Notes: generated by a model not told the origin, from the letters alone. Counted from the stretch's first letter, positions 36,292-54,133 are shown. The stretch: 64,000 nucleotides of DNA from an uncultured Chloroflexia bacterium (GCA_963774695.1 CAVZFY010000021.1:148786-212785), one strand, 5' to 3'. Numbers and translations are program-made.

Positions 36292-36361
36292 GGCCGCCGA
36301 ATGGTAGTCGACGGTCGCCGCTCACGCCTCCGACCGGGTCGTACTGGTACGCTCGCGACCG

Positions 36362-36684
36362 ATGGGCGGCAAGTTGGCGATTGCGGCGGGCCTCGTCATG
36401 GGCGTCGCCGTTGGGGCGGGCGTCCTGGGCGGCGTCGTGCTGCTGGCACCCGGCGTGGACCCGCTGGCGACGCCGACGCCGGCACCCGCGGCGTCACCGT
36501 CGGCGCCGGCCTCGCCGTCCGCGTCGCCATCGACCGCCCCGTCCCCGTCCGCACCCTCGGCCACGCCGGGCACGTCCCCCGGCTCACCCGACCCGTCCGC
36601 CTCGGCTGGGGCCGCGTTGTCCGGGTGGGCCGTCCGGCCGGGCGAGCGGCCGCCGTTGGCGGGCTCGCGTCCCGCTTCGCCTAG
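36362..36684 (+). CDS. Small membrane-anchored Ser/Pro/Ala/Thr-rich protein; 3' end uncertain
   Basis: Hydrophobic N-terminus MGGKLAIAAGLVMGVAVGAGVLGGVVLLA followed by TPTPAPAASPSAPASPSASPST; TACGCT lies 8 nt before the ATG. Confidence 0.45.
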
Positions 36685-38163
36685 CCGCCGACCTGCCCGA
36701 CCGACGCGGCGGCCCGCGCGACGATGTCGAGCATCGTCGTCGGGAACAGCCCGAGCGCGATCGTCATGACGGTCGCCACGGCCAGGCCGGTCCAGACGAG
36801 GCGGCCGTGGCGGAGGCCCGCCTGCTCGGTCGTGGGCTCGCGCATGAACATGTAGACGACGACGCGCAGGTAGTAGAAGGCGGCGATGGCCGCGTTGAGG
36901 ACCGCGAGCACGGCGAGGACGTTGAGCCAGCCGCCCGCCTCGACGGCGGCCAGGATCACGTAGAACTTGCCGAAGAACCCGGCGGTGGGCGGGATCCCGG
37001 TCAGCGACAGCAGGAACAGGGTCATCAGCAGGGCGAGCGTCGGCTCCCGGCGGATCAGGCCCGAGAACGTCGACAGGTTGCTGGTCACGCCCTGGCGCTT
37101 CTGGATCGCGGCGATGACCGCGAACGCGCCGAGGTTCATGAACGCGTACGCCGCGCCGTAGTAGAGCAGGCCGGACATCCCGTCCTGCTCGCCCGCGCCG
37201 AAGGCGGCGAACCCGACCAGCATGTAGCCGGTGTGCGCGATCGACGAGTACGCCAGCATCCGCTTGACGTTGTCCTGGGCGAGCGCGACGAGGTTGCCGA
37301 GGGTCATCGTGAGCGCCGCCAGGATCATGATCACGGCGTTCCAGTCGGCCGCGAGCGGGCCCGAGCGCGTCGGCGAACAGCCGGATGATCAGCGCGAACG
37401 CCCCGATCTTCGGCCCGACCGACAGGTAGCCGGTCACCGGCGTCGGGGAGCCCTGGTACGCGTCGGGCGTCCAGTAGTGGAACGGCACCGCCGCGATCTT
37501 GAACGCGACGCCCGTGGTCATGAACGCGAGCCCGAGGCCGAGCGCCGGGGCGAGCGGCGCGCCGCCGCTGACGATGTTGGCGAGCGCTTCGGAGACGCCG
37601 GCGATCCGCGTGGTGCCGGTCATGCCCCACACGAACGCGAGCCCGAACAGCAGGATCGCGCTCGAGAACGAGCCGAGCAGGAAGTACTTGATCGCGCCCT
37701 CGGTCGAGTAGCCGTCCGACTTGTGGTAGCCGGCCATCACGTAGCCGGGCAGGACCATGAGCTCGAGGCCGAGGAACATCAGCAGCAGGTCCGCCGACCC
37801 GGCGATGAGCATCGCGCCCGACATCGCGAAGATCAGGACCGCGGCGAACTCCGCGACCGGCAGGTCCCGCTCCTCGAGGTAGTCCGGGGCGAACGCGATC
37901 GTCAGCGCGACGATCGAGATGAACAGGATGTCGAGGAAGGTCGTCAGCGCGTCGACGACGTAGGCGCCGTTGAACGCGAGCTTGGGCAGCGGGTCCTGGC
38001 CGACCAGCGCGGTCAGCAGCGCGACGATCCCGAGACCCAGGAAGGCGACGGCCAGCGCCGGGCCCTTGCGTCCCGGGAAGATGAAGTCGGTGATGAGGAT
38101 CGCCGCCGCGACGAGGATCGTCGCGATGAACGGCGAGAAGGCGACGAGGTCTTCGGTCGTCAT
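36681..38163 (-). CDS. nuoN: NADH-quinone oxidoreductase subunit N; frameshift near 37360
   Basis: MFLGLELMVLPGY; EGAIKYFLLGSFSS; FKIAAVPFHYWTPDAYQGSP; NVKRMLAYSSIAHTGY; GIPPTAGFFGKF. Confidence 0.95.
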
Positions 38164-39724
38164 CGCAGCCCTACCGCCACGGTCCGTAGGCGATGGGCGC
38201 CGCGTGCTGGACGGCCTGGAGCGTGCTAGTCCACGGAGCCGTTGATGATGCCGAGGACGAGCCCCGGGAACAGGCCGAGGATCACGACCAGCGCCCCGAG
38301 CGGGACCAGCGTCATCGCCTCGACGGGGCGCATGTCGGTCAGGTGGCTGCCGAGGCCGCTCGAGGAACTCGCTCAGCTCGCCGAACACCACCCGCTGGAA
38401 CATCCACAGCAGGTAGCCGGCCGCGAGGATCATCACGAACGTCGCGATCGCCGCGGCCGACGGGATCATCACGAACGTCCCGACGAGCGTCAGGAACTCG
38501 CCGACGAACCCGGACAGGCCCGGCAGGCCGACGGACGCGAACACGAAGAACCCGAACGCGGCGGCGTAGACCGGCGTCTTCGACGCCAGCCCGCCCATCT
38601 TCGCGATCGTCCGGTCGTGGGTCCGCTCGTAGATCACGCCGACGAGCAGGAACAGGCCGCCGGTGATCAGGCCGTGGTTGACCATCTGCAGGATCGCGCC
38701 CTGCAGCGCCTGCTGCTGGAACACGAAGATGCCGAGCGTGACGAAGCCCATGTGGCTGACCGACGAGTAGGCGACCAGCTTCTTGAGGTCGGGCTGCACG
38801 AGGGCGACGATCGCGCCGTAGATGATCGCGATCAGGCTGAGCACGATGATCGCCGGCGCCCACGTGTGGGCGGCGTCGGGGAACAGCGGCAGGGCGAAGC
38901 GGATGAACCCGTAGCCGCCGAGCTTGAGCAGGACGCCGGCCAGGATCACCGAGCCCGCCGTCGGCGCCTCGACGTGCGCGTCGGGCAGCCAGGTGTGGAA
39001 CGGGAACATCGGCACCTTGATCGCGAAGGCGAGGAAGAAGGCGCCGAACGCGAAGAACTGGAAGGTCGGGTTGAAGCCGCCGGTGCCGGCGAACGCCGTC
39101 AGCACCTGGACGTCGAAGGCGCCGGCCCACGTCTGCGTCGCCGCCTGGTAGGTGAACGCCGTCGCCAGGATCGCGACCAGCATCAGCAGCGAGCCGACGA
39201 GCGTGTACAGGACGAACTTGATCGTCGCGTAGATCCGGTTCGCGCCGCCCCAGATCCCGATGATCAGGTACATCGGGACGAGGACCAGCTCCCAGAAGAT
39301 GTAGAACAGGAACAGGTCCATCGCGACGAACACGCCGATCATGCCGACCTCGAGGATCAGGAAGGAGACCATGTACTCCTTGACCCGGTTCTGGATCGGC
39401 TTGAACGAGGCGAGGATGCTGATCCACGAGAGCGTGGTCGTCAGCACGACGAGGACGAGCGACAGGCCGTCGACGCCCACGTGGTACTGGATGCCGAACA
39501 GCGGGATCCAGTCGTAGACGTCCTGGAACTGGAAGCCGGCCGAGCCCGGTCGCGTAGGCGGCGAGCAGCCCGAGCGACACGACCCACGCGCCGAGGGCGA
39601 ACAGCAGCGCGACCCAGCGGACCGCGTTCGGTCGGCCCGAGGGCACGAGGGCCACGACGATCGCGCCCAGCAGCGGCAGGAACGTGACCAGCGTCACCGG
39701 GTGGATGTCGGCGAACCAGCTCAT
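38160..39724 (-). CDS. nuoM: NADH-quinone oxidoreductase subunit M; frameshifted
   Basis: GVDGLS; DLFLFYIFWELVLVPMY; IKVPMFPFHTWLPDAHVEAPT; LKKLVAYSSVSHMG; MVNHG; PGLSGFVGEF. Confidence 0.95.
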
Positions 39725-41797
39725 CGCGGCTGCGACACGATCACGAGGAACGACCCGGCCATGACGAGCAGGCCGATCGCGATGCCGAGGGCGTAGTTCT
39801 GGACGCGGCCCGTCTGGATCCGGCGCAGGCTGCCGCCGACGCCGCGCGTGGCGCCGCCGATGCCGTTCACGGTGCCGTCGATGACGACCCGGTCGAACCA
39901 CCACAGCGCCCGCGGCGACCCTGCCGCCGAGCACGATGAACAGCAGGTGGTTGAGGTCGTCGAACCACCACTTGTTGAGCGACGCGCGGTAGAGGAACTG
40001 CGTCCCGCGGTTGGCGGACGCGATGCGCTCGACCATCCGCGGATGGCCGCCGTTGCGGAAGACGCCGAACAGCCAGATGCCGAACACGAGGCCGGTGGTC
40101 GCCGCGGCGACGCTGATCAGGATCAGGGCGCCGTCGATGCCGGCGATCTGGAACGTCTCGTCGGTCTGGCCGAGGTAGGCGTTCGAGGCGGCGAAGACCG
40201 GCTCGAGCCACGTCGTCAGCAGGCCCGGCTGCACCGGCAGCCCGAACAGCGGCCCGAGCGGCGGCCCCGGCCAGGTGAGGATGATGCCGAGGAACAGCGA
40301 CGGGATCGCGAGCAGGATCAGCGGCACCGTCATCTGCCACGCCGACTCGTGGATCTTGGGCTCGACCGCCGGGTCGACGTGCGACGGGCCGTAGAACGTC
40401 TTGCCCATCAGGCGCCACATGTAGAACGCGGTCATCACGGCGACCGTCAGGCCGATCGCCCAGATCCAGTAGCTGCCGTTCTTGTAGGCGTCGGCGAGGA
40501 TCTCGTCCTTCGAGAAGAAGCCGGCCAGCGGCGGGATGCCGGCGATCGCGATCGCGCCGATCAGCATCGTCCAGTGGGTGATCGGGATCTTCCGCCACAG
40601 CGCGCCCATGCGGTTCATGTCCTGCTCCTCGTGGACCGCGTGGATCACCGATCCCGAGCCGAGGAACAGCAGGCCCTTGAAGAAGCCGTGGGTCATGAGG
40701 TGGAAGATCGCCGCGGTCCACGCGCCGACGCCGAGCGCGGCGAACATGTAGCCGAGCTGGGACAGCGTCGAGAACGCGAGCACGCGCTTGATGTCGGTCT
40801 GGGTGAACGCGATCGAGGCCGCGAGGATGGCCGTGAAGATGCCGATGGCCCCGACGACGACCATCGTCTCCTGGGCGTGCGCGAACAGGATGTTCGAGCG
40901 CGCGACGAGGTAGACGCCGGCGTTGACCATGGTCGCCGCGTGGATCAGGGCCGAGACCGGGGTCGGGCCCTCCATCGCGTCCGGCAGCCAGACGTGGAGC
41001 GGGAACTGGGCGCTCTTGCCCATGGCGCCCGCGAACACGAGCAGCGCGATGAGCCCGATCGGGATCGGCAGCTGGACACCGGGCGCCGTGAGCTTGGCCA
41101 GCGAGTCCTGGATGTTGAGCGTGCCCGTGCAGTAGAAGATCGCCATGATCCCGAGCGCGAACCCGACGTCGCCGACGCGGTTGACGATGAACGCCTTCTT
41201 GGCGGCGAGGGCCGCCGAGCGCTTCGAGTACCAGAAGCCGATCAGCGAGTAGCTCGACAGCCCGACCAGCTCCCAGCCGGCGAACACGAGCAGCCACGTG
41301 TTCGCGAGCACCAGCAGGAGCATCGAGAACATGAACAGGTTGAGGTAGGCGAAGAAGCGCCACGTCCCGTTGTCGTGGGCCATGTACCCGATCGAGTAGA
41401 TGTGCACGAGCATGCCGATCGTGGTCACGACGATCAGGAGGCAGGCCGTCAGCGCGTCGACGTGGAAGCCGATGTCGACGTTGAATCCGCCGGCCGGGAT
41501 CCAGTCCCAGAGCTTGATGTCCAGGCCTTCTTCACCGAACGGCGCGGCGTGCTGGAGGGCGGGCGCGATGATCGCGAGGGCGATCAGCCAGACGGCGATG
41601 ATGCCGACGACCGGGACGATCTCCGCGGCCCACCGGCCGAAGCGCAGCTGGAGCCGACGGCCGAACAGCGCGTTGAACGAGAAGCCGGCGATCGGGATCA
41701 GGAGGAGCAGCGGGATCAGCGTCGCGTAGATGCCGGGGTCGGCCGATCCCGCGGGATCGACGGCCGCGAACGCCGTGACGGGCAGGAGGTGGATCAC
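39721..41797 (-). CDS. nuoL: NADH-quinone oxidoreductase subunit L; frameshift near 39915
   Basis: RFFAYLNLF; GWELVGLSSY; FIVNRVGD; GKSAQFPLHVWLPDAMEGPTPVSALIHAATMV; DIKRVLAFSTLSQLG; HGFFKGLLFLGSG; AGFFSKD. Confidence 0.96.
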
Positions 41798-41799
41798 CG

Positions 41800-42132
41800 C
41801 TACTGCCGCATCGCGTCGTACTCGTCGACGAGCGGCGTCTTCTTGTTGCGGTAGATCGCGATCACGATCGCGAGGCCGATGGTCGCCTCGGCCGCCGCGG
41901 CGGCGATGACGACCAGCGCGATGACCGACGCGTTCGCCTGGAGCGACGTGGTGAACGCCCCGAACGCGATGATCGAGAGGTTGACGCCGTTGAGCATCAG
42001 CTCGATCGACATCAGCATGCTGATCGCGTTGCGCCGGGCGAGGAAGCCGAACGTGCCGATCGCGAACAGGATCCCCGACAGCACGAGGTAGGCGTCGAGG
42101 GACTGCGAGATGCCGTTGAGCGCGCTGAGCAT
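41800..42132 (-). CDS. nuoK: NADH-quinone oxidoreductase subunit K
   Basis: LFAIGTFG..RRNAISMLMSIELMLNGVNL...AAAEATIGLAIVIAIYR. Confidence 0.95.
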   Translation of the reverse strand: MLSALNGISQSLDAYLVLSGILFAIGTFGFLARRNAISMLMSIELMLNGVNLSIIAFGAFTTSLQANASVIALVVIAAAAAEATIGLAIVIAIYRNKKTPLVDEYDAMRQ

Positions 42133-42668
42133 CAGTCGACGCCCCCGTGCTCGCGCTTGGCGAGGAACACGCCGCCGATGACGGCCGCCAGCAGGAGCAC
42201 GCTGACGATCTCGAACGGGAGGACGAACGAGCCGAACAGCGTCTCGGCGACGGTCGTCGTGTCGGTCTGGTAGACGGTGCCGGTGATCGGCCAGGTGGTC
42301 GAGAGGACGCCGAGCGCGATGACGATCGCGAGCAGCACGCCGGCGACCGCCGCGGGCCCGGCCTGCGTCTGGAACACCAGGCGGCTGGGCGCGGCCTTCG
42401 TCTCGGTGAGCATGATCGCGAACAGCACGAGCACGCTGATCGCGCCGATGTAGACGAGGACCTGCGTCGCGGCGACGAGCGGGGCGGCGGCGATCACGTA
42501 GATCCCGGCGAGGGCCGCGAAGCACACGATCATCGCGAGGGCGCAGCGGATGATGTCGCGCATCGTCACGACCAGCAGCCCGGCGATCAGCATGATCGCG
42601 GCGAGCGTCATGAACAGGAGGTCGTCCCAGCCGATCCCGAGGAACGGGATGGTCTCAGGCAGCGTCAC
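42132..42668 (-). CDS. nuoJ: NADH-quinone oxidoreductase subunit J
   Basis: QVLVYIGAISVLVLFAIML; LPFEIVSVLLLAAVIGGVFL. Confidence 0.95.
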   Translation of the reverse strand: MTLPETIPFLGIGWDDLLFMTLAAIMLIAGLLVVTMRDIIRCALAMIVCFAALAGIYVIAAAPLVAATQVLVYIGAISVLVLFAIMLTETKAAPSRLVFQTQAGPAAVAGVLLAIVIALGVLSTTWPITGTVYQTDTTTVAETLFGSFVLPFEIVSVLLLAAVIGGVFLAKREHGGVD

Positions 42669-42677
42669 GTGTCGCTC

Positions 42678-45367
42678 TCAATGGTCGTGCGCGTGGCCCG
42701 TCGAGGCGGTCGCGGGCAGGGCCGCGGGCCCATGGCCGTTCCCGTTCGCGTGGCCGTGGCCATTGCCGTTGCCGTGCCCGTTCCCGCCGCCCGCGATCGA
42801 GGCCGGCAGCACCGGCAGCAGGCGCGCCGGGTCGAGGAACCGGCCCTCCGCGCGCGCCCGGTCGGCCCAGTCGCGCTCCTTGCGGATGTAGCTCATCTCC
42901 GTCTCGCGCTCGACCGCCGCCAGCGCGAGGAGGTCGATCATCGGCTCCTCGCGGGACGTGTGGCTGAGCTCGAACTGGTCGCTGTCGCGCACGGCGTCGT
43001 ACGGGCACGCGTCGACGCAGATGCCGCACAGGATGCAGCGGCTCTCGTCGACCTCGTACTTCTCGAGCACGCGCGGCTTGGGCATCAGCGCGCCGGTCGG
43101 GCACGTCTCGGCGCACCGGCCGCAGGACACGCACGGCGTGTCGTTGAGGCTCATGTCGAGCGGCGTCGTGACCAGGGTGTCGAACCCGATCCGCATGAAG
43201 TCGTAGCAGGCGGCGCCCACGACCTCGGCGCACACGTTGGCGCAGCGGCCGCAGTCGATGCAGCGCGACGGCTCGCGGAGGATGAACGCGTGGCTGTCGT
43301 CGCGGACGTAGTCGTGGTTGATGCCGGTGAACCGGTTCTCGGTCACGCTGCGGTAGCCGGCGCCCTGGTGGAACGCGGGCTCGAGCGTCTTGAGCGTCGT
43401 CCCGTACTCGATGCCGAGGCGGCGCAGGTCGCAGAACCCGATCGCCTCGCACGTGCACTGGAGGCAGCGCGTCGACTCGGCCATCGCGTCGGCCGGCGTG
43501 TACGGGATCTCGTACTCGATGTAGTTGCTGTTGCGGGCCTCGGCCTCGAGCGCCGTCATGCGGTAGCGCGGCTCCTTGATCTCGCCGGTGAACGGCACGA
43601 TCGAGAGGAACTCGGGCTGCGGCTCGGCGAGCGTCTGGCGGGCGCGGATCGTCGACGAGGTCGTTGCCCTTGAGGTAGGCGTCGACCGCGTAGGCGGCGC
43701 GCCGGCCCTCGGCGATCGCCTGGACCACGGTCGCCGCGCCGATCCGCACGTCGCCGGTGCCGAACACGCCGGGCCGCGCGGTCTCGAAGGTCACGGCGTC
43801 CGCGCCGAGGCGGCGCTGCTTGGTGGCGACCGGGCCCTCGGAGCCGGGCCGGATCCAGTCGAGCTCCGGGCCCTGGCCGATGGCCAGCAGCACGCGGTCG
43901 CACGGGATCGTGAACTCGGTGCCCGGCGCGGGCTCGGGGCGGCGGCGGCCGGAGGCGTCGGGCGCGCCCGGCTGCATCCGGATGAACTCGATGCCGGTGA
44001 GCTTGCCGGTCTTCTCGTCGGTGATGACGCGCGTCGGGCCCGCCTGGAAGATGGCGGTGACGCCCTCCTCGATGGCCTCGTGGACCTCGTTGCTCGCCGG
44101 CATGTCCTTCATGTCGCGGCGGTAGACGAGCGTGACCTCGCTGGCGCCCTGGCGGATCGACGTCCGCGAGCAGTCCATCGAGGTGAACCCGCCGCCGACG
44201 ACGACGACCCGGGAGCCCTCGTGGCCCGGGTACGGCAGGCCGAGCGTCGCGGTCCGCAGGTACTCGAGGCCGTCGATGACCCCGTCGGCGTCCTCGCCCG
44301 GGATCCCCAGCTTGTTGGTGTCGTAGCAGCCGATGGCGACGACGACGGCGTCGAAGCCCTGGTTCTGCAGGTCGTCGAGCGTGAAGTCGCGCCCGAGGCC
44401 CATGTTGCAGCGCATCTTGCCGCCGAGCCGGATCACCGACTCGTACTCGGCCTCGAGGACCTCGACCTTCGGCAGGCGGTACTGCGGGATGCCGTAGCGG
44501 AGCATGCCGCCGGGCGACGGGTCGCGCTCGAACACCGTCACGTCGTGGCCGGACAGCAGCAGGTAGTAGGCGGCGGCCATGCCGGCGGGCCCGGAGCCGA
44601 TGACCGCGGCGCGACGCCCGGACGCGGCCTGCTGCTCGAACGGCAGCGGCGGGTCGACGTCCTCGTCGAGCATCGCGCGGATGACCTGGTCGCCGGCGTA
44701 GCGGTGGCTGTCGCGGATCGCGATCGCCTCGTCCACCTCGTCGCGGCGGCAGTGCTCCTCGCACGGCGCCGGGCACACGCGGCCGAGCACGCTGGGGAAC
44801 GGGATCGTGCGCTTGAAGATCCGGGTGCGACTCGCGCCAGTTGGCCTCGGCGTTGGCCTTGAGGAAGCCCGGGATGTCGATGTGGCTCGGGCACTTGTTC
44901 TGGCACGGCGGCAGGCAGTACGCGTTGTGGTCCGAGAAGATCAGCTCGAGGTTCGTGCGGCGCAGGCGGCGGACCTCCTCGGTCTGCGTCTGGACCTTCA
45001 TCCCGTCCTCGCACGTCCGCGAGCACGAGATCGGCGGCGTGTCCTCGCCCTCGACCTCGACCACGCACATGCGGCAGGCGCCGAAGCCCGGCAGCTTGGG
45101 CTCGTAGCACAGGGTCGGGATCTCGATGCCGTTGTCGCGGCAGACCTCGAGGATCGTCTGGCCCTCGAGGCCCTCGACCACGCGCCCGTCGACCTCGATC
45201 CGGATCGCCGGCGTGCTCTGCGGCCGCTGCGGCGACTGGGTCGTGATCAGCCGCTCGGCGAGGCCGTCGTTCTGGGGCGTGACGGTGTCGAGGACCGCGG
45301 GGTTGTCGGGGCGCGACTGGACACGGCGCTCGGGCGGGCGTTCGGGGCGGATGATCAGGTCGGCCAT
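42678..45367 (-). CDS. NuoG-position fusion protein: 2Fe-2S, GltD-type FAD/NAD(P)H oxidoreductase, 4Fe-4S, 2x4Fe-4S, and the C-terminal half of NuoI; 2 frameshifts (~44810, ~43650)
   Basis: CYEPKL..FGACRMCVVEVEG..ISC; HNAYCLPPCQNKCP; GRVCPAPCEEHCRR; VIGSGPAG; GGMLRYGIP; VVGGGFTSMD..VYRR; GTGDV; RCLQCTCEAIGFC; CIDCGRCANVC; CVSCGRCAETCP; then KYEVDESRCILCGICVDACPYDAV..SDQFELS..REE. Confidence 0.9.
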
Positions 45368-45375
45368 GTCGCGTC

Positions 45376-46704
45376 CTAGCTCGCCGCGCCCGCCGCCACC
45401 GCGATCGGCTGACAGACGCCGGCGGGGCACGAGCTGCGCAGGATGTGGTCGTCGATCTCGGAGCGGAAGTATCGCATCCCGCTGGTGAACGCCAGGGTCG
45501 CCAGGCGCTCGTGGTCGCACAGGCCGCTGGCGGCGATGTCGTGCGCGAGGTCGCCCAGGAGGTCGGCGTCGGTGGGCTTCGGACGGCCGGTCGAGATCCG
45601 GTCGCCGATCTCGTACAGCCGCCGCAGCCCGATCCGGCAGGGGATCGTCTTGCCGCAGGCCTCGTCGGCGGAGAACTTGGTCAGCAGCCGGGCGAGGTCC
45701 ACGACGCACGCGCGGTCGTCGGCGAACACGACGGAGCCGGAGCCGATGTGGGCGCCGGCTTCGCGGAGCGGCCCGTAGGCGTACGGCATGTCGATCGCGT
45801 CGGCCGGCAGCAGCCCGCCGGTCGGCCCGCCGATCAGGATCGCCTTGAGCGCGCGGTCGCCGCGCCCGCCCGCGAGGTTGACCAGGGTCCGCAGCGGCGT
45901 CCCGAACGGCACCTCGGCGATGCCGCCGCCCGCGGGGCCGCGGAGCTGGACGAGCACCGTGCCCGGGCTGTCCTCGACGCCGGTCGCCGCGAACGCCGCG
46001 CCGCCCTGGCGGACGATCCACGGGACGGTGGCCAGCGTCTGGACGTTGTTGACGACGGTGGGCTTGCCGAACAGGCCCGTCTCGGTCGGATAGGGCGGCT
46101 TCTGCTCGGGCTGCCCGCGCTTGCCCTCGAGCGCCTTGAGCAGGACGGTCTCCTCGCCCAGCATGAACGCGCCCTGGACCGGCCGGATCGTGACCGTCAC
46201 CCGCTGGCCGCTGTTGAGCACGTTGTCCCCGAGGAAGCCGGCCTCCTCGGCGGCGAGCGCGGCGCCCTCGAGCTTCGTCACGAGCGCGGGGTCATCCGCC
46301 CGGACCGCGAGGATCGCCTCCGTGGCGCCGACGGCGAACGCGGCGATCGCGAGGCCCTCGAGCACGAGGTAGGGGTCCGCGGCGAGCAGCGCGGCGTCGG
46401 TGTGCGAGCCCGGGTCCGCGCCGTAGCCGTTGGCGACGACGTAGCGCTGGGTGGCCGACTGGGACGCGGCCGCGCGCCACTTCTCGCCGGTCGGGTAGCC
46501 CGCGCCGCCCCGGCCGCGCAGCCCGGAGGCGGCGATCGTGGCGATCGTCCCCGTCGCGCCGAGGTCGCGGACCGCGATCCGCAGCCCGTCGAAGGCGCCG
46601 GCCTTCACGGCGGCGTCGAGGTCGCCGGGATCCTTCTCGAGCGCGGCGACGCGTCCGGTGAGGATCGACGGGAAGTCCCGCTGGGTCGAGATGAACGCGC
46701 TCAT
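45376..46704 (-). CDS. nuoF: NuoF/HydB-like flavoprotein with divergent NADH/FMN and N3 motifs
   Basis: Intact 442 aa ORF: SGLRGRGGAGYPTGEKW; NGYGADPG; GEETVL; PPYP; NNVQT; GGPTGG; EACGKTIPCRIG; GLCD; HI..SSCPAGVC. Confidence 0.9.
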   Translation of the reverse strand: MSAFISTQRDFPSILTGRVAALEKDPGDLDAAVKAGAFDGLRIAVRDLGATGTIATIAASGLRGRGGAGYPTGEKWRAAASQSATQRYVVANGYGADPGSHTDAALLAADPYLVLEGLAIAAFAVGATEAILAVRADDPALVTKLEGAALAAEEAGFLGDNVLNSGQRVTVTIRPVQGAFMLGEETVLLKALEGKRGQPEQKPPYPTETGLFGKPTVVNNVQTLATVPWIVRQGGAAFAATGVEDSPGTVLVQLRGPAGGGIAEVPFGTPLRTLVNLAGGRGDRALKAILIGGPTGGLLPADAIDMPYAYGPLREAGAHIGSGSVVFADDRACVVDLARLLTKFSADEACGKTIPCRIGLRRLYEIGDRISTGRPKPTDADLLGDLAHDIAASGLCDHERLATLAFTSGMRYFRSEIDDHILRSSCPAGVCQPIAVAAGAAS

Positions 46705-47386
46705 GCGCCGCCCGCCGCGCCGGCGCCCCGGTCGCGCCGCCGAAGCCGAGCGACGCCTCCAGCGCCGACCGGTAGTCCGACTCGATCGCCCGGTGCGCCT
46801 CGCCCGCGGGCGCCCCGGCGTCGATCGTCGGTGGCTCGAAGCGCAGGTGGCGGTAGTAGGTCGCGGTCCCGTAGATCATCGCGTACCAGGTGCCGGTGAT
46901 CCGCGAGATGTGCTTGAGCGCGCCGACCGGCAGGTAGCCGTACTCGGCCTGCGTCTCCTCGAGGATGGCCAGCAGGTCCTTGGGGTCGTAGTCGTGGCGC
47001 TCGAGGATCTCGTCGAGGGCGGCCGTGTCGACGGGGTCGAACCGCGCGTAGGCCGCGTCCGGCACGGTCCGGCCGGACCGGCGCAGCGCCGACTCCTCGC
47101 GCCGCTCGCCGAAGGTCTCGGCGGGGCCCCAGTGGACGTGGAAGCGGCCCTTGGTGTCCATGCCGCCCATGTCGATGCACTCGATCGGGCAGGCCTGCGC
47201 GCACTGGAAGCACGTCTCGCACTTGAGCGTGCCCCACTCGTCGTACAGCAGCTGGAGCCGGCCGCGGAACTTGGGCGGGACGTCGGCCGGCTGCTCGGGC
47301 CAGTGGACGGTCGCCTTGGGGGCGAAGAACCGGCGCAGGGTGAACCCCATGCCCCGGACCATGCCCATGCCCGGCACGGTGCTCAC
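46701..47386 (-). CDS. Fusion of the N-terminal half of NuoI (one CxxCxxCxxxCP) and the N-terminal helical domain of NuoE (no 2Fe-2S domain)
   Basis: GMGFTLRRFF..KATVHWPEQ...KFRGRLQL.YDE.G.LKCETCFQCAQACPIECI, then LDEILERH...LLAILEETQAEYGYLP...IYGTATYY, all in one frame. GTGA overlap with nuoH and ATGA overlap with nuoF (stop reached via a late frameshift). Confidence 0.88.
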
Positions 47387-48726
47387 AGGTGCAGCGTCCC
47401 GGCCACGGCGGCCCCGGCGATCACGACCGCGGCGGCGGTCAGGAACAGGTTGAGCAGGGACGCGGGCAGCAGCCACTTCCAGGCGAAGTTCATCAGCTGG
47501 TCGAGGCGCACGCGCGGGAGCGTGCCGCGCATCCACACGAAGATGAACACGAAGATGAACGCCTTGAGCAGGAACCACAGCAGGCCGGCGACCCAGTCGA
47601 GCCCGAGGTAGGTCACGCCGAAGATCGCGCCGACCGCGACCACGTTGAACGTGATGAACCCGAGCACGAGCGCCTGCCACGCGGGCCGGTCGCTGCGGAT
47701 CAGGTAGAACGGCGCCGCGAGCAGCAGCGTGATCACGAGCGGCGCGGTCGCGAGGATGATCAGCAGCCCGTTGCCCAGCGAGCCCGGGTCGAGGCCCAGC
47801 ACGACGTGCGGGAAGTCGAACGGCGCGTTCCAGGCCCCGAAGTACAGGGTCGTCATGAGCGCCGAGATGATGAACACGTTCACGTACTCGGCGAAGAACA
47901 GGAACCCGAACCGCATGCCCGAGTACTCGGTGGCGAACCCGGCCACGATCTCCGAGTCGGCCTCGGTCAGGTCGAACGGCGTCCGGTTGGCCTCCGCGGT
48001 GGCGGCGATGAAGAAGATCAGCGCGCCCAGCGGCTGGCGGAACACGAACCAGTCGGTGAACCAGCCGGACTGCTGCTGGCCGATCTGGTAGACGCTCATC
48101 GTCCCGGCGAGGAGGATCAGGCCGACGACCGAGAGCGTGAGCGGGATCTCGTAGCTCACGACCTGGGCCGCGGACCGCAGCCCGCCGAGCAGCGAGTACT
48201 TGTTGAAGCTCGACCAGCCGGCCATCAGCAGGCCGACGACGGTCATGCCGCCGATCGCGAACAGGTACAGCAGGCCGATGTTCAGGTCGGCACCGACGAG
48301 CCCGGGCCCGAACGGGATGACGAGGAACGTCATCACCGCCGTCAGGAACACGATGACGGGCGCCCAGGTGAACACGATGCTGTCGGCGCCGGTCGGGGTG
48401 AAGTCCTCCTTCATGAGGACCTTGAGCCCGTGGACCACCGACAGGAGGGAGCCGGCCGGCCCGACCCGGTCCGGGCCGACGCGAAGGTTCATCAGCGCGA
48501 TGACCTTCATCTCCATGTAGATGATGATGAAGGCGGCCGGGATGCTGAACAGCAGGATCGCCGTGACGGCGACGAGGAACCGGACGATCTCGATGTTGGC
48601 GCTGAGGATCGCGATCAGCCACGGCGCCACGAGGTTGGCGAACAGGATCGTCACGATCGGCCCGACCACGAGGACCAGGATCAGCAGCGGCAGCAGGATC
48701 CGCCCGGTCAGCGTCAGGCTGCTCAT
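47383..48726 (-). CDS. nuoH: NADH-quinone oxidoreductase subunit H (extended, ~447 aa)
   Basis: EMKVIA.MNLRVGPDRVGP; GLKVLMKED; YSLLGGLRSAAQVVSYE; AEANRTPFDLTEADSE; GFATEYSG; WMRGTLPRVRLDQLM. Confidence 0.95.
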   Translation of the reverse strand: MSSLTLTGRILLPLLILVLVVGPIVTILFANLVAPWLIAILSANIEIVRFLVAVTAILLFSIPAAFIIIYMEMKVIALMNLRVGPDRVGPAGSLLSVVHGLKVLMKEDFTPTGADSIVFTWAPVIVFLTAVMTFLVIPFGPGLVGADLNIGLLYLFAIGGMTVVGLLMAGWSSFNKYSLLGGLRSAAQVVSYEIPLTLSVVGLILLAGTMSVYQIGQQQSGWFTDWFVFRQPLGALIFFIAATAEANRTPFDLTEADSEIVAGFATEYSGMRFGFLFFAEYVNVFIISALMTTLYFGAWNAPFDFPHVVLGLDPGSLGNGLLIILATAPLVITLLLAAPFYLIRSDRPAWQALVLGFITFNVVAVGAIFGVTYLGLDWVAGLLWFLLKAFIFVFIFVWMRGTLPRVRLDQLMNFAWKWLLPASLLNLFLTAAAVVIAGAAVAGTLHL

Positions 48727-48743
48727 CGACCGTCGAACGGCGG

Positions 48744-49987
48744 TCACTTGTCGACTCCGCCCATGATCGGGTCGAGCGAGGCCATGACGGCCATGGTGTC
48801 CGCGATCAGGTTGTCCTTCATCATCATCCCCACCAGCTGGAGATGGACGAAGGACGGGTCGTGGATCTTCATCCGGAACGGCTGGTCGGTGCCGTCCGAG
48901 ATCGCGTAGGTCCCGTACAGCCCGCGCGGCCCCTCGATCCCCGCCCAGGCGCGGCCGGGCCGCGGCCGCAGCAGGCGCGGCAGCTTCGCCATCACCGGCC
49001 CGTCGGGCATGTTGTGCAGGCACTGGTCGATGATCCGGAGGCTCTGCTTGACCTCCTCGACGCGCAGCAGGTAGCGGTCCAGCGCGTCGCCGCCGGCCGG
49101 CCCGTGGCCGCGCGTCGGGACGTCGAACTCGATCTCGGGGTAGACGCGAGTACGGGATGCGCCCGGCGGATGTCGAACGGCATGCCCGTCGCCCGCAGGT
49201 TCGGGCCCGTCACGGCCATCCGCATCGCGGTCGCGTTGTCGAGCCGGCCGATGTCGCGCATCCGGCGGACGAAGATCTCGTTCTCGTTGAGCAGCTTGGT
49301 GTTCGCGTCGTGCTGGTTGGCCGCGCGGCTCATCCAGTCGCCGAGGCGGGACATGAACTCGTGGTTCAGGTCGCCGTTGACGCCGCCGATCCGGAAGTAG
49401 TTGAACAGCATCTTCTGGCCGGTGATCGAGGCCAGCAGGTCGCAGATCTCGTCGCGCTCGATGAAGCTGTACAGGATCGGGGTCAGGCCGCCGAGGTCGA
49501 GCGCCATCCAGCCCATGAACAGGGCGTGGCTCGCGATCCGGTTGAGCTCGCCGGTGAGCACCCGGATGTACTCGGCGCGCCGCGGCACCTCGACGTCGAG
49601 CAGCTTCTCGAACGCCATCACCGGCGACCACTCGCAGAACAGCGAGCTCACGTACTCGAGCGGGTCGACCTGGCTGATGACCTGGTGGTAGTCCGCGTTC
49701 TCGCACAGCTTCTCGACGCCGCGGTGGAGGTAGCCGAGGACGGGGTCGAGGTCGACGACGCGCTCGCCGCTGATCTTGAGCACGACGCGCAGCACCCCGT
49801 GGGTCGACGGGTGCTGGGGGCCCATGTTGAGGAACATCTCGCCGTCGCCGAGCGTGTAGAACTCGGCCTCGCGCTCGGTGCGCGGCGGGTACGGCGGGAC
49901 GGGCTCGAAGTGCCCGATCTGGTCGTCGAGCATCACCCGCGGGTCGTCCGCGGACGCGTGCTGGTGGGGCGCGGCGGGGGCGGTCAT
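48744..49987 (-). CDS. nuoD: NADH-quinone oxidoreductase subunit D; frameshift near 49150
   Basis: LNMGPQHPSTHGVLR; GYLHRGVEKL; DPLEYVSS; ELNRIASH; IEGPRG; DTMAVMASLDPIMGGVDK. Confidence 0.96.
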
Positions 49988-49989
49988 CG

Positions 49990-50540
49990 TCAGGCCTTCA
50001 CCGTGCGCCGGACCGTGGACGGGGTCGCCTGCGCCGGCACGTGCGTCTGCTCCATGTGGCGGACGCCGCCACCGGGCGAGCGCGACGGCGTCGTCGGCCA
50101 GGTAGAAGTCCTTGCGCAGCGGGAAGCTCGTGTAGTCGGGCGGCATGTAGATGCGCCGCAGGTCGCGGTTGCCCTCGAAGATGATCCCGAACATGTCGTA
50201 GGCCTCGCGCTCCATCCACTCCGCGCCGGGCCACAGGCCGGTGATCGAGGGGACGCGCGGGTCGTCGCGGGGCATGCCGTCCGCGACCACCCGCAGCCAG
50301 TCCGGGGACTGCGCGGACCAGAGGTGGTAGACGACCTGCATGTGGTCGCCGGTGTCGACGCCGGCGAGGTCGGCGAGGATCTCGAAGCCGAGCTGCGGGT
50401 CGTCGTGGACCACGCGCATGACGTCGACCAGGTCCGCCGGTGCCGATCCGGATCTCGGTCTGGTCGTGGCGCTGGCGGAGCGGCCCCGTGAACCGGTCTC
50501 CGAGCTTGGACTCGAGCCGGGCGCGCAGCTGGCGGTCCAT
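49990..50540 (-). CDS. nuoC: NADH-quinone oxidoreductase subunit C; frameshift near 50440
   Basis: LAGVD; VVYHL; VPSIT.LWPGAEWMEREAYDMFGI.FEGN.DLRRI; FPLRKDF. Confidence 0.94.
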
Positions 50541-50542
50541 GG

Positions 50543-51295
50543 CTAGATGTCCTGCGGCACGGTCGGCCCGATCGGGCGCTCGTGCCACTCCCCGCGCCGG
50601 TCCTTGACCAGCTGCTGGAGCTTCATCATCCCGTAGATCAGGCCCTCGGGACGGGGCGGGCAGCCCGGGACGTAGACGTCGACCGGCATGACGCGGTCGA
50701 TGCCCTCGATCGTCGAGTAGCTGCGCTTGTACCGCCCGCCCGAGCACGTGCAGTCGCCCATCGCGACGCACCACTTGGGCTCCGGCATCTGCTCCCAGAG
50801 GCGGACGAGCGGCCCCGCCATCTTCGTCGTCAGCGTGCCCGCGACGATCAGGACGTCGGCCTGGCGCGGGCTGGCGCGGAACGGGAACATGCCCCAGCGG
50901 TCCATGTCGTTCTTCGACGTCGCCGCCGACATCATCTCGATGGCGCAGCAGGCGAGGCCCGAGAGCAGCGGCCACAGGCTGTTCATCCGGATCAGGTCGA
51001 GCACGAGGTCGGCCTTGGTCGGGATGACCTCGAGCGCGCCCCAGCGCGCGTCGTCGCGGCGCACGAGGTCCGAGTGCTCGAGCCGCGTCAGGTGCGTGTG
51101 CTCGGTTCCCTCCTCGCCGCCGTAGGCGTCGGGCCGGATCGACCCCCAGAGCGTGTTGGGGACGACGATCGGCTGGGCGAGGTCATGGGGGTTGGCCGTG
51201 ACCAGGCCGCTCGCCGCGGCGCCGGCGTCGTCGGCGGGCGCCACGGCACCCGCCGCACCGCCGGCCGGGACGGGATCCTCGCGCGTCAGCGCCAT
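50543..51295 (-). CDS. nuoB: NADH-quinone oxidoreductase subunit B (with N-terminal extension)
   Basis: LWPLLSGLACCAIEMM; RASPRQADVLIVAGT; QMPEPKW; GDCTCSGG; VYVPGCPPRPE. Confidence 0.96.
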   Translation of the reverse strand: MALTREDPVPAGGAAGAVAPADDAGAAASGLVTANPHDLAQPIVVPNTLWGSIRPDAYGGEEGTEHTHLTRLEHSDLVRRDDARWGALEVIPTKADLVLDLIRMNSLWPLLSGLACCAIEMMSAATSKNDMDRWGMFPFRASPRQADVLIVAGTLTTKMAGPLVRLWEQMPEPKWCVAMGDCTCSGGRYKRSYSTIEGIDRVMPVDVYVPGCPPRPEGLIYGMMKLQQLVKDRRGEWHERPIGPTVPQDI

Positions 51296-51652
51296 GTCAG
51301 GACGCCCTTGCGCCAGGCGTAGGCGAGGCCGAGCAGGAGGATGCCGACGAACACGAGCATGCTCAGGAACAGCAGGCCCTGGTTCGAGGTTCGGATCGCG
51401 GAACACCACCGCCCACAGGTAGATGAACACGATCTCGATGTCGAACGCCACGAACAGCAGCGCGTAGATGTAGAACGAGATCCCGAACCGGGCGTGGGTG
51501 TCGCCGTACGTGTCGATGCCCGACTCGTAGGGATATCCCTTGTGCTCGTCGCCCTTCGTGCGATGCGAGATCGCCCAGGCGAGTCCGATCGTCAGGAAGA
51601 CGAACGTCACGCCGGCGAAGGCGAACCCGACGACGTACCAGAGTTCGGTCAC
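51286..51652 (-). CDS. nuoA: NADH-quinone oxidoreductase subunit A; frameshift near 51375
   Basis: PYESG; FYIYALLFVAFDIEIVFIYLWA; the shifted frame ends LAYAWRKGVLTWR*. Confidence 0.93.
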
Positions 51653-51807: not shown

Positions 51808-53010
51808 CTAGCGATCGATGCGGCGGAGGGCGGGGAGCGCGGCGTCCGGCGGCATCCCGCGACCGAAGACGAGCACGCGGAACCCGCCCATGCCGCGTGG
51901 GTCGAGGAGCCGCTGGAGCGCCGAGCGCAGGAGCAGCGCGTCCTCGATCGTCGCGCCGGGCCGGCTCAGCCACGCCGAGGCGAGGTCCCCCGATGCCGCC
52001 AGCAGCTCCGCCTGTGTCGTCTCGCCCACCGGGTCGAGGCCGGCGCGGGCCGCGGCGGCGCGGACGGCCGCGAGGTCGACGGTCGCGGTCAGGTCCTGGC
52101 GGCCGACGTGGCGGAGCGCGTCGCCGCCGACCGCGTGGCGCGCGAACGCCCGCAGCGTGCCGTCCGGTCGCGCGATCGAGTGGAGGGCCGCAGGCTCGTC
52201 GGCGTAGTCCACGAGCACCACCGGCCCGCGGGCGAGGTGGGCCGTCGTCGCGGCCAGCCAGCCGTCGACGGCGAGGCAGACCTCCGTGACCTGGCCGTCG
52301 GCGAGCTCGACGCCCTCGGCCTCGAGGCGCGCCGCCAGCTCGGGCGTGCTCGGCTCGGCCTCGACCCAGGCGAAGCGGTCGCCGTCGACGCCGACGAAGC
52401 GCTCGCGGAGGCCGTCCGGCCGCCCGACGACGCGGTGGACCGGCAGCGCGTCGAGGACCTCGTTCGCGACGACGGCGCCCGTCTCGATCGCGTCACCTCG
52501 GCGGCGTGTCGTCGACGAGGTGACCCGCCAGGCCGTCGGTCGCGAGGCGGTCCCGGAGCGCGGCGATGCGCGCTTCCTCGCGTTCCACCGGGCGGTAGCG
52601 GATCGCGGGGAGGAGCGGCGAGCCCGCGTCCCGCAGCCCGCCGAGCAGGCCGGCGGCGAGGGCGCCCGTTCCGGCGCCGGCCTCGGTGACGATGAACGGG
52701 TCCGGACGGTCCATCGCCGTCCCAGGCCTGCTCGAGCAACCGCCCGATCGCGGTGCCGAAGATCGGGTGCAGCTCCGGGGCCGTGACGAAGTCGCCCGCG
52801 AACCCCGGACCCGCGGTCGGGCCGGCGGTAGTAGCCGTGGCCCGGCTCGTACAGCGCGCGCTCCATGAACCGGGCGAACGTGATCGGACCCTCGGCCGCG
52901 ATCTCGGCGCGGAGGCGCTCGACGAGCTCGGCGTCCTCACCGACCGCCTCGGGGTCCGGATGGGGATCGCGGACCAGGCCGGGGATCGCGTCGCTGCCGC
53001 CGCCGGTCAT
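51808..53010 (-). CDS. NDUFAF7/MidA-family SAM-dependent methyltransferase; frameshifted
   Basis: GPITFARFMERALYEPGHGYY; GDFVTAPELHPIFG; EAGAGTG; ANEVLDALPVH; LVDY; DLTATVD; F.VLV. Confidence 0.88.
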   Translation of the reverse strand: MTGGGSDAIPGLVRDPHPDPEAVGEDAELVERLRAEIAAEGPITFARFMERALYEPGHGYYRRPDRGSGVRGRLRHGPGAAPDLRHRDRAVARAGLGRRWTVRTRSSSPRPAPERAPSPPACSAGCGTRARRSSPRSATARWNARKRASPRSGTASRPTAWRVTSSTTRRRGDAIETGAVVANEVLDALPVHRVVGRPDGLRERFVGVDGDRFAWVEAEPSTPELAARLEAEGVELADGQVTEVCLAVDGWLAATTAHLARGPVVLVDYADEPAALHSIARPDGTLRAFARHAVGGDALRHVGRQDLTATVDLAAVRAAAARAGLDPVGETTQAELLAASGDLASAWLSRPGATIEDALLLRSALQRLLDPRGMGGFRVLVFGRGMPPDAALPALRRIDR

Positions 53011-54088
53011 CGCCGCGCCCGCAGCGCGAAGCGCACGCCCGGCCCGACCAGGCTGTGGCCGCCGAGGAGGATCGGGACGTCGGCGCCCGCGGCCGACGCC
53101 GTCAGGTCGCGCAGCCACGGGTCGCGGACGCGATCGGCGAGGAGCAGGTCGCTCGCGAACCGGTCCTCCGGCGGCGGCCATCCCCGCTCGTCGGCGCCCA
53201 GGCGATGGGCGAGGAGCACGCGGGTGTCGATGAGGGCGCCGTCCGCGAGGCGCGCGACGTGGCGGCCGAGCGATCCCGGCCCGTCGCGGTCGAGCAGCTC
53301 GCCGAGCACGCTGCGGGGCGGCCGGCGGTTCGGGCGCCCGAGCGCCGTCCCGATGGCGGCGGTCCGCAGGCCCCGCTCCTCGACCAGCGCCCGCGTCCGC
53401 GACCGGGTGTGCGTCTCGAGCCAGCGGAGGTCGGCGGCGGACGTGCGGCCGGCGACGAGCAGCTCCATGCCCGGGTCGGCGCGCCAGTGCCCGGATCGCG
53501 CGGAGCCGCTCGCGGACGGGCTCGGCATCGGCATCGGCAGGCCCCGGGAGTCGGGGGGCGCCGGCGACGCCGTCGAGCAGCAGCAGGTCCAGCGGCGAGT
53601 CGAGGTCCATCGCCAGCCGGCGCCGCGTGCGCAGGTCGCGAACCGGCACGCCGGCGACCTCCGCGAGCCAGCGCGGCAGCGCGTTGTCGGAGGCCAGGTC
53701 CGGCAGGTCGCGCAGGGCCTGCGTCGCGCAGGCGATCGCCAGGACGTCGGCCGAGGCCCGGTGGTTGGCGAGCGCGCCCGGCTCCCCGGCCGCCGCGGCC
53801 AGCACGAACGCCGCCCGATCGGCGGCCGTCGCCAGCGGGATGGAGCCCGCCCCCAGCACGACCAGGCCGTCGGGACGGAGCTCCGAGACCAGCCGGCGGA
53901 GACGCGACCCGAACGGCGTCTCGTCCGGCGGCTCGCGTCGGACGACCACACGCGCGGCGCCGGCGGCGAGGAACCCCGTCCGGTGGACCTCGGCCAGCGC
54001 GGTCCTGGCGCGCGTCGAGCGCGCGTTCGAGCGGGCCCGCGTCGGGGGCGAGCTCGGGGGCGAGGACGAGGACCGTGACCGCGGGCAT
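53007..54088 (-). CDS. Conserved hypothetical protein (possible GT-A/CofC-like N-terminal domain); frameshifted
   Basis: Coding-like sequence with PFG.RL, GAGSIPL, NHRASAD, DNALPRWL, DLDSPLD, EERGLR, IDTRVLLAH, EDRFASD, LGGHSLVG. The fold assignment is from recall only. Confidence 0.6.
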
Positions 54089-54133
54089 GTGTGACACTCG
54101 GGCCCGAGTCTAGCGACGGGAGGGCGACGGGCC

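Follow-up and report, generated by a model that had tools for sequence, protein, structure and literature searches.

A nuo operon in which the NuoI subunit of complex I is divided between two proteins is carried by a 64,000-nucleotide stretch of DNA from an uncultured Chloroflexia soil bacterium (GCA_963774695.1, CAVZFY010000021.1:148786-212785; this whole stretch is referred to below as the window). The operon lies on the minus strand, as do all the window features described here, and extends from about 51650 to about 36320. Sequence reading, profiles, and tblastn searches gave the order nuoA-B-C-D-H-[NuoI N half+NuoE N domain]-nuoF-[2Fe-2S+GltD-type FAD/NADPH domain+HydA/NuoG-type Fe-S clusters+NuoI C half]-J-K-L-M-N. 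That this architecture is real is, in our judgment, close to certain. The operon probably encodes a functional, non-canonical complex I in which the two NuoI halves are fused to an inserted module of the Stn/Nfn-Bfu type, and its most likely function, as predicted from the sequence, is that of a proton-pumping NAD(P)H:quinone oxidoreductase.

A NuoI Subunit Split Between Two Proteins

The sequence-only reading of this stretch had proposed that nuoI is split in two and that each half is fused to another subunit, and it was right as to both the gene order and the two fusions. In profile searches with the NuoI model TIGR01971, positions 1-65 were matched by the N-terminus of a first fusion protein (fusion 1), and positions 71-116 by the C-terminus of the large protein encoded downstream of nuoF (the big subunit). 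The single polypeptide with two CxxCxxCxxxCP motifs that characterizes NuoI is missing from the window, its halves being located on two proteins. The first motif, CETCFQCAQACP, is found at 47221-47186 in fusion 1, and the second, CILCGICVDACP, at 43037-43002 in the big subunit, where the tail typical of the C half of NuoI, FELSHTSREEPMIDLL, is also present at 42974-42927. Both motifs had been spotted in the earlier reading, with end coordinates that fell a trivial 3 nt short.

Comparison with solved structures locates the cut. Residues 8-73 of fusion 1 align to residues 22-87 of the plant subunit TYKY (7ar7_I) and to residues 6-68 of Thermus Nqo9, and the C-terminal 50 residues of the big subunit align to residues 99-147 of TYKY. 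The two halves therefore cover TYKY 22-87 and 99-147, which places the cut in the loop that connects the ferredoxin motifs, with only some 11 residues unaccounted for. Each fusion protein contains exactly one orphan CxxCxxCxxxCP motif. The other motifs of this kind in the big subunit, at residues 702-712 and 745-755 in the numbering of the reference orthologue (locus L045, from the Illumina metagenome-assembled genome (MAG) RBG_16_72_14), correspond to the homologous FS4A/B pair, which is found in every StnC, NfnA, HydA, and HoxU relative devoid of a third motif.

The residues predicted to bind the clusters are strictly conserved. The four Cys of the N half are invariant in 133 aligned sequences from Limnocylindria and Thermoleophilia, and the big subunit shows no variation in any of its 31 cluster Cys, the four of the C half among them, in 113 sequences, which span these two phyla at 27-47% identity. 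In 2x[4Fe-4S] domains of ferredoxins, each cluster is held by three Cys of one motif and by a fourth Cys of the other; the clusters, if present, must therefore be ligated across two chains. That the two halves re-form the NuoI fold is likely on these grounds.

No other NuoI was found that could take over this role. Apart from the two halves, nothing in the window genome, a 3.75 Mb MAG that is 72% complete, reaches the TIGR01971 cut-off in a profile search, in line with the earlier observation that an intact nuoI was lacking. Similarly, in eight of nine near-complete relatives, the two halves are the only NuoI-like signal in a profile search, and these genomes contain no intact nuoI. Since nuoI is split, its halves are complementary, no intact copy occurs elsewhere, and the eight Cys are invariant, the natural reading would be an inter-subunit N6a/N6b domain that ties the input module to the quinone module (Q-module).

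The ninth relative (G019, 98% complete with 8% contamination) harbors an additional NuoI-like open reading frame (ORF) of 137 aa (C7:69027-69314), which matches model positions 9-118 with 53.7 bits. It was not accepted as a canonical NuoI, given the cut-off of 113 bits and the contamination of the genome; it could represent a hydrogenase-type ferredoxin subunit or a contaminant.

The Inserted Module

The two halves of NuoI bracket a module that the sequence-only reading had taken for an E/F/G-like module of complex I. Matches to solved chains show instead that it is of the Stn/Nfn-Bfu type, with a BfuA subunit that harbors a GltD-type FAD/NADPH domain. This BfuA is the big subunit, an StnC/NfnA-like protein of about 890 codons encoded at 45367-42678. 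Its best matches among solved chains are 9bov_A (E = 6e-161), StnC (8oh5_C, 1.6e-142), and NfnA (9n5u_A, 1.1e-141), and the similarity to solved BfuA chains extends over residues 55-790 at 38-46% identity. A match to PRK12814 spans all three pieces of the gene, which is frameshifted in the window (see below). In a search of 1.8 billion representative sequences, the nearest relatives outside the family were StnC/NfnA/GltD-formate-dehydrogenase-like proteins of 1000-1270 aa, with 37-46% identity.

All the elements of a Stn/Nfn-Bfu BfuA, that is, an N-terminal 2Fe-2S domain, an inserted GltD domain with two [4Fe-4S] clusters, and HydA/NuoG-type clusters, are present in the big subunit. The 2Fe-2S domain (approximately 45109-45065) is followed by the GltD-type domain, which comprises a 2x[4Fe-4S] part at 44917-44749, an FAD site at 44604-44563, and an NADPH site at 44205-44098 with the VYRR motif that is common to the big subunit and Nfn-Bfu. 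Then come a CxxCxCx5C cluster (43466-43431), a 2x[4Fe-4S] domain of the HydA/HoxU type (43262-43098), which together add three more [4Fe-4S] clusters, and the C half of NuoI, whose second motif and tail were located above. The StnC/NfnA-like relatives run on into an FdhF-like domain where the big subunit has its NuoI half. Stn and Nfn are also set apart from it by being soluble, the genes described here lying inside a nuo operon. Public annotations of the large protein read “FAD-dependent oxidoreductase” or “formate dehydrogenase major subunit.”

Two side observations were made on this family of proteins. The big subunit ends in a Gly/Asn/His-rich tail (42678-42780; GNGHGNGNGHGHANGNGHG...HAHDH repeat), whose length varies among relatives and which the streamlined family lacks; a role in metal binding or as a spacer is conceivable. 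In addition, many GltD-bearing BfuA/formate-dehydrogenase homologues in the representative library (P0126, P0153, P0160, P0195, P0215, and P0229) were called as proteins of about 810-850 aa ending in ...NNIDHCARL. This end coincides with the position of the selenocysteine (Sec) codon of formate dehydrogenase, and these homologues were therefore probably truncated by gene callers at the TGA (Sec) codon.

Fusion 1 is encoded at 46701..47386. Its NuoI half, with the NuoI-specific N-terminal segment and the first CxxCxxCxxxCP motif, is joined by a linker of about 35 aa to the N-terminal helical domain of the NuoE/HydC/StnA type (approximately 47017-46829), which matches positions 2-62 of PF01257 only. 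The best solved matches of this NuoE part are 9bov_C, StnA (8oh5_A), and NfnC (9n5u_C). The thioredoxin-like domain that binds the 2Fe-2S cluster N1a is absent from fusion 1 of the window.

The nuoF-like gene (46704-45376) encodes a protein of 442 aa that corresponds to a BfuB core. It retains an FMN/NADH fold along with the N3 region, and scores 330 bits with TIGR01959, below the cut-off of 559. Both the N-terminal 2Fe-2S domain and the C-terminal 2x[4Fe-4S] domain are missing in the window. The NADESEPG loop is replaced by NGYGADPG, the N3 motif reads CGKTIPC, with the second Cys lost, and LCDHER stands in place of LCALGG. Conservation of these motifs was assessed in 74 Limnocylindria and 47 Thermoleophilia sequences. 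In Limnocylindria, the loop NGYGADP is conserved to at least 90% across the class, LCDHER likewise replaces LCALGG, and the second N3 Cys is changed to Thr, Ser, or Ala. NuoF is the least conserved of the three proteins among relatives, with 52-81% identity, the big subunit being the most conserved, with 82-92%. Its derived motifs are conserved and not decaying, and NuoF is therefore under selection. The H..CPAG.C motif, which we take to be the zinc site of Bfu known from HydB/StnB structures, is kept in all three lineages that carry the module. Altogether, the operon does not specify a canonical N-module: NuoE is truncated, a Cys of N3 is replaced (CGKTIPC), and the big subunit carries GltD as an insertion but lacks the molybdopterin-like domain of NuoG.

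Distribution, Phylogeny, and Origin of the Split

The split that was noticed in a single stretch of DNA recurs in relatives, with more than 500 loci in Limnocylindria, Thermoleophilia, and Ktedonobacteria. Fusion 1 was found in 40 of 41 close relatives, including streamlined genomes of 1.0-1.4 Mb from a sister family, and in 33 of 33 sampled genomes of the class Limnocylindria, from three families. Among species-representative contigs, 212 loci were identified, and the fetched ones show the order fusion 1-nuoF-big without exception as far as their contigs extend. Thermoleophilia (Actinomycetota) account for 178 loci, with the operon order B..D-H-fusion 1-F-big-J-L-M-N in 5 of 5 loci examined. 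In the streamlined relatives of 1.1-1.4 Mb, the NuoF-like gene of the operon is the single one of its kind, and the two halves in the operon are the only NuoI-like genes. Together with the eight near-complete relatives in which the halves are the only NuoI-like signal, this indicates that the Limnocylindria relatives depend on the split version.

In Ktedonobacteria, 181 loci were found, isolates included, namely Thermogemmatispora tikiterensis T81, T. carboxidivorans PM5, Ktedonobacter robiniae, Tengunoibacter tsumagoiensis, and several Dictyobacter species. Here the genes form a four-gene cassette, nuoB-[NuoI-N+NuoE-N]-nuoF-[big+NuoI-C], located away from nuoACDH (L232, L233, L234), and a separate nuoA-C-D-H cluster has neither nuoB nor nuoI (L238, L240). 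A canonical 14-gene nuo operon with intact nuoI is present as well (L237).

A paralogous operon, in which the split-ferredoxin cassette is joined to pyruvate:ferredoxin oxidoreductase (POR), was also observed in Thermoleophilia (MAG DASRZL010000079.1, L190:2982-11207; also P0258 and loci L182-L200). It has the order porG-porD(intact)-porA-[half-ferredoxin+full NuoE]-BfuB-[2Fe-2S+GltD+Fe-S clusters+half-ferredoxin+PorB], and its product may be a Por-Bfu enzyme that is linked to NADPH and has a connector domain made of two chains.

In a tree of the large protein (FastTree, local supports only), all the sequences that bear a half-ferredoxin form one clade, apart from 130 other StnC/NfnA/Fdh-like homologues. 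Within it, Ktedonobacteria and Limnocylindria group together (94), Thermoleophilia branch next (93), and the POR-linked sequences fall outside these (93).

The sequence-only reading had explained the split by insertion of the input module into nuoI of an 11-subunit operon. The gene order fits this view, H-[I-N...I-C]-J being the exact position of nuoI, and the NuoI-specific ends kept in the Nuo-linked halves fit an origin from NuoI. From the N half of the POR-linked paralogue, these ends are largely gone: it scores 27 bits with TIGR01971, versus about 50 in the Nuo-linked case, and matches positions 22-63 only. Other histories must nevertheless be considered, as the POR paralogue and the nuoB-containing cassette of Ktedonobacteria indicate: a pre-existing mobile cassette (half-ferredoxin+BfuC, BfuB, BfuA+half-ferredoxin) might have replaced nuoI, or the halves might stem from a duplication of nuoI flanking the module. 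Such a course of events is supported by the POR-linked paralogue, in which both NuoI-like half-domains recur and which falls outside the Nuo-linked clade, and by the existence in Ktedonobacteria of a separate four-gene unit. We regard it as unlikely, albeit with a share of the probability that is far from negligible.

Stepwise Reduction of a Bfu-Type Enzyme

The three lineages differ in how much of a Bfu enzyme they have kept. In Thermoleophilia, BfuC is a complete NuoE with the four Cys of the 2Fe-2S cluster in 51 of 51 sequences. BfuB is likewise full, with an N-terminal 2Fe-2S domain, the canonical loop NADEGDPGAF, a CGKCVPC N3 motif, and a C-terminal 2x[4Fe-4S] domain, and its hallmarks are found in 46-47 of 47 sequences. 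Ktedonobacteria have the N domain of NuoE only and the core of NuoF only, with an intact N3 and the loop NAYDADP. In Limnocylindria, the thioredoxin-like domain of NuoE is depleted of Cys in two families and deleted in the family of the window. The extra BfuB clusters B2-B5 (N-terminal 2Fe-2S and C-terminal 2x[4Fe-4S]) are absent from the window and from all 74 Limnocylindria NuoF sequences, and the BfuC cluster is absent from the window. The three lineages thus appear as stages of a stepwise reduction, from the complete Bfu to the core only, and then to the core with a three-Cys N3.

The hallmark clusters of Bfu separate the bifurcating enzymes from their non-bifurcating relatives, B2-B5 being listed for every true bifurcating Bfu enzyme (Schut et al., 2022, PMC9304861). 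Membership was defined by a BfuB with FMN and B2-B5 and a BfuC with a 2Fe-2S cluster, and neither B2-B5 nor the BfuC cluster occurs in the window. Judged by its sequence, the window enzyme is therefore a descendant of a Bfu module and a non-member by the definition of Schut et al. (2022), and it probably does not bifurcate, because the Bfu-specific clusters are absent.

The opposite possibility is that the complex still bifurcates or confurcates electrons among NADH, NADPH, ferredoxin, and quinone, for instance to form NADPH in a quinone-driven reaction, or to reduce menaquinone with NADH and reduced ferredoxin. Such chemistry has been predicted for Nuo-Bfu (Schut et al., 2022, PMC9304861), and the Thermoleophilia relatives have every Bfu hallmark, so that their enzyme may bifurcate, with sites for NADH, NADPH, ferredoxin, and quinone. 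For the class of the window, in contrast, the loss of B2-B5, of the BfuC cluster, and of an N3 ligand makes bifurcation unlikely, and as a general account of the complex, this proposal has a low probability.

Proposed Mechanism and Its Weak Points

A possible course of electron transfer can be put together from these features. The NuoI halves would associate beside NuoB to form one 2x[4Fe-4S] domain, which would serve both as the N6a/N6b relay and as an anchor for the flavoprotein module. Each of N6a and N6b would receive three Cys from one chain and one from the other, which would staple the input module to the Q-module. A hydride from NADPH would reduce the FAD of the GltD domain, and electrons would then pass through the GltD clusters and the BfuA chain to the HydA-type distal cluster, and from there through N6a/N6b and N2 in NuoB to quinone. 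Quinone reduction would drive proton pumping by an otherwise ordinary membrane arm. The divergent NuoF might offer an entry for NADH at FMN, or it might permit an exchange between NADH and NADPH through the shared wire.

The path described for Stn is FAD-C7-C6-C5-C4-C3-B1-FMN, and the C1/C2 branch toward its dead FdhF domain is non-functional (PMC10482914). The NuoI C half of the big subunit begins where Stn has this branch, which would here have become the productive outlet. The module would once have been a complete bifurcating unit of the Bfu/Stn type, as it still is in Thermoleophilia, whereas in the class of the window N1a, the additional domains of BfuB, and a Cys of N3 have disappeared. 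NADPH, oxidized at the FAD, is a slightly favored candidate for the physiological donor to quinone. A broader synthesis, in which the two-chain ferredoxin is a covalent staple that wires an Stn/Nfn-type module to the Q-module and makes the complex an NADPH-oxidizing proton pump, the Thermoleophilia form bifurcates among four substrate sites, and the connector is portable and has been reused for POR, is offered tentatively, its chances as a whole being somewhat below even.

Several observations weigh against parts of this proposal. In an AlphaFold2 monomer model of the 888-aa subunit, built from an alignment of 38 sequences, the GltD domain is confident, and the mean pLDDT is 58.8, with values below 50 for residues 636-833, the Fe-S C-terminus. 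Only 21 residues lie between the second ferredoxin motif and the third CxxCxxCxxxCP motif, and on sequence alone, the motifs might pair otherwise than homology suggests. The specificity for NADPH as opposed to NADH rests on one motif. The streamlined relatives also carry PntAB and may carry NDH-2, for which PF22366 is a weak marker that missed most control genomes; the physiological donor named above is therefore tentative. Both the flavin-site loop and the N3 ligands of NuoF are altered, which makes FMN and NADH putative ligands of the NuoF of the window. Finally, the window's own copy of the operon contains frameshifts, attributed to assembly noise by cross-assembly comparison.

The short spacing of the last motifs also lends itself to another reading, in which motifs 745-755 and 777-787 of the big subunit pair with each other and the halves are relics or adaptors. 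The N half would then have no complete cluster or would act as an anchor for NuoE, and electrons would take another route to N2 or the enzyme would be soluble. It is compatible with this reading that an alignment of the NuoI model can run from the second HydA-type motif into the motif of the NuoI C half as though both belonged to one domain, that the Ktedonobacteria cassette is located away from the membrane genes, and that the paralogue serves a soluble POR. However, motifs 702-712 and 745-755 are already accounted for as the FS4A/B pair, which leaves one orphan per fusion protein, the four Cys are invariant in 133 N halves, and both the NuoI-specific N-terminal segment and the C-terminal tail are retained. 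Moreover, neither in the window genome nor in eight of the nine near-complete relatives was another NuoI found to serve NuoB, NuoD, and NuoH, and the Ktedonobacteria cassette includes the nuoB that is missing from their nuoACDH cluster. The relic reading is thus rather improbable, and a shared N6a/N6b domain built from the two halves is preferred.

Operon Layout and Assembly Quality

The window has a G+C content of 72%, and its closest public relatives, many of which are long-read soil MAGs, are labelled Candidatus Limnocylindrales or uncultured Chloroflexia. The other parts of complex I are present in the operon, as determined by sequence reading and tblastn. The Q-module is represented by NuoB, NuoC, and NuoD, and the membrane subunits by NuoA, H, J, K, L, M, and N. 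The block from nuoA to nuoH occupies 47383..51652. Within it, nuoA extends from 51652, nuoB is located at about 51295-50546, nuoC extends from 50540, nuoD is at 49987-48747, with one frameshift near 49150, and nuoH is at 48726-47386, its stop overlapping fusion 1 in a GTGA. The N2 ligands (CC...C...CP) of NuoB are present in the motifs ACCAIEM, GDCTCSGG, and PGCPP, and NuoD has the QHPSTHG and DPLEY motifs with the His and Tyr of the Q site. The membrane arm block (36322..42668) consists of nuoJ (42668-42135), nuoK (42132-41803), nuoL (41797 to about 39733, with one frameshift), nuoM (from 39724), and nuoN (from 38163).

Two features were noted at the proximal end of the operon. In NuoB, some 70-90 aa precede the usual start of the fold; this N-terminal extension is kept in L045 and may provide a docking surface for the new module. 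Directly upstream of nuoA (51808-54156) lies a gene for an S-adenosylmethionine-dependent methyltransferase of the NDUFAF7/MidA type (PF02636), which is also located upstream in L045 (3191-4540). In mitochondria, the NDUFAF7/MidA family modifies the homologue of NuoD by methylation of an Arg residue.

Single-base indels break several conserved genes throughout the window (e.g., at 49150, 44827, 43656, 39906, and 46740-46703), with about one per 2-3 kb in the nuo operon, and ORF calls in the window therefore need to be guided by orthologues. Relative to an orthologue with 89% identity, the gene of the big subunit has one extra base at each of two places, about 44827 and about 43656. The stop codon of fusion 1 is missing as a result of an indel in its G-rich tail (46740-46703); its reading frame probably ends, in fact, with the TGA of 46703-46701, which overlaps the ATG of nuoF. 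As tblastn showed that nuoD and nuoL are likewise frameshifted, these breaks are taken as assembly noise, and they are consistent with uncorrected errors in a long-read consensus. In L045, all the operon genes are intact: fusion 1 is a 220-aa protein whose stop overlaps the ATG of nuoF, NuoF has 446 aa, and the large protein is a single ORF of 888 aa. A pseudogenized operon was rejected, as the frameshifts are spread over several essential nuo genes and the encoded segments in the window are 75-89% identical to those of L045 (64% for nuoJ), with no in-frame stops inside the aligned segments.

The earlier statement that each fusion lies in one continuous frame holds for the two junctions, which are within single frames and recur in more than 100 independent assemblies, and has to be amended for the genes as wholes, given the two insertions in the big gene and the lost stop of fusion 1. 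Given that the big gene, nuoD, nuoL, and the end of fusion 1 are all frameshifted, one might suspect that the split itself arose from misassembly or long-read indel noise, but with both junctions in frame, the three genes intact with identical junctions in Illumina MAGs such as RBG_16_72_14, and more than 500 loci in three lineages, finished isolate genomes included, this explanation can be practically dismissed.

Implications and Comparison with Known Systems

The input modules of complex I are a classic case of modular evolution, in which NuoI has so far been regarded as a constant, undivided part of the Q-module. The 2x[4Fe-4S] fold apparently tolerates, and might even exploit, being split over two polypeptides, which bears on the long-standing proposal that ferredoxins originated from half-domains. 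If, as proposed, a respiratory complex draws electrons from NADPH through a GltD-type FAD, models of redox balance would have to be altered for abundant soil bacteria of the Limnocylindria, Thermoleophilia, and Ktedonobacteria. The Thermoleophilia enzyme is a candidate for a membrane-bound, quinone-coupled Bfu member in aerobes, which would link bifurcating transhydrogenases to respiration. Because automatic annotation gives the large protein the names cited above, metabolic reconstructions probably score the carrier genomes as devoid of nuoI, nuoE, and nuoG. The existence of cultured carriers (Thermogemmatispora, Ktedonobacter, Dictyobacter, and Tengunoibacter) makes the hypothesis directly testable. 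In a full-text search of the literature, neither a split NuoI nor the occurrence of this module in the complex I of Chloroflexota or Thermoleophilia was found to be described, although absence there is not proof.

The closest published idea is that of Nuo-Bfu, predicted in Geobacter, Deferribacteres, Planctomycetes, and Nitrospirae (PMC9304861). As in the operon described here, a BfuABC-type module located amid a nuo operon replaces NuoEFG as the input to a quinone-reducing, proton-pumping complex. However, Nuo-Bfu has 14 subunits (A-N), with an intact NuoI and a BfuA that lacks the GltD/NADPH domain, whereas here the NuoI halves are covalently fused to BfuC and BfuA, and the Bfu core is reduced in the class of the window. 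In that work, Actinobacteria are unmentioned, and Chloroflexi appear only under Mbh-Bfu and Por-Bfu (PMC9304861).

In composition, the module most resembles the electron-bifurcating transhydrogenases StnABC and NfnABC (8OH5, 9N5U, 9BOV; PMC10482914), which reduce NADP in a reaction dependent on NADH and ferredoxin and in which NuoE-like and NuoF-like subunits accompany a BfuA that has a 2Fe-2S cluster, a GltD insert, and clusters of the HydA/NuoG type. The order 2Fe-2S / GltD / clusters of StnC (PMC10482914) is also that of the big subunit. Those enzymes occur as soluble proteins with a dead FdhF-like domain at the end of BfuA; in the present system, the C half of NuoI takes the place of this domain, NuoE is fused to the N half, and a nuo operon houses the genes. 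The version in the window additionally lacks the BfuC cluster and the extra domains of BfuB.

With the canonical 14-subunit and the “ancestral” 11-subunit forms of complex I (Moparthi and Hagerhall, 2011, PMC3144371), the operon shares the Q-module, the membrane arm, and the 11-subunit order A-B-C-D-H-(I)-J-K-L-M-N. It differs from them in that NuoI is not a single chain and in that the Stn-type module is located inside nuoI and not between nuoD and nuoH; the molybdopterin-like domain of NuoG is absent, and an extra FAD site is present. The Mbx-like clusters (Degli Esposti, 2015, PMC4758237) offer a further parallel, with a GltD-type NAD(P)H flavoprotein at the position of NuoI in a complex-I-like membrane complex. 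There, the flavoprotein is reported to substitute for NuoI, in Mbx-type complexes linked to sulfur or ferredoxin, whereas here both halves of NuoI persist and bracket a three-subunit module within a true nuo operon. Alternative input modules of complex I were thus already known, and the novel element is the split, inter-subunit ferredoxin domain.

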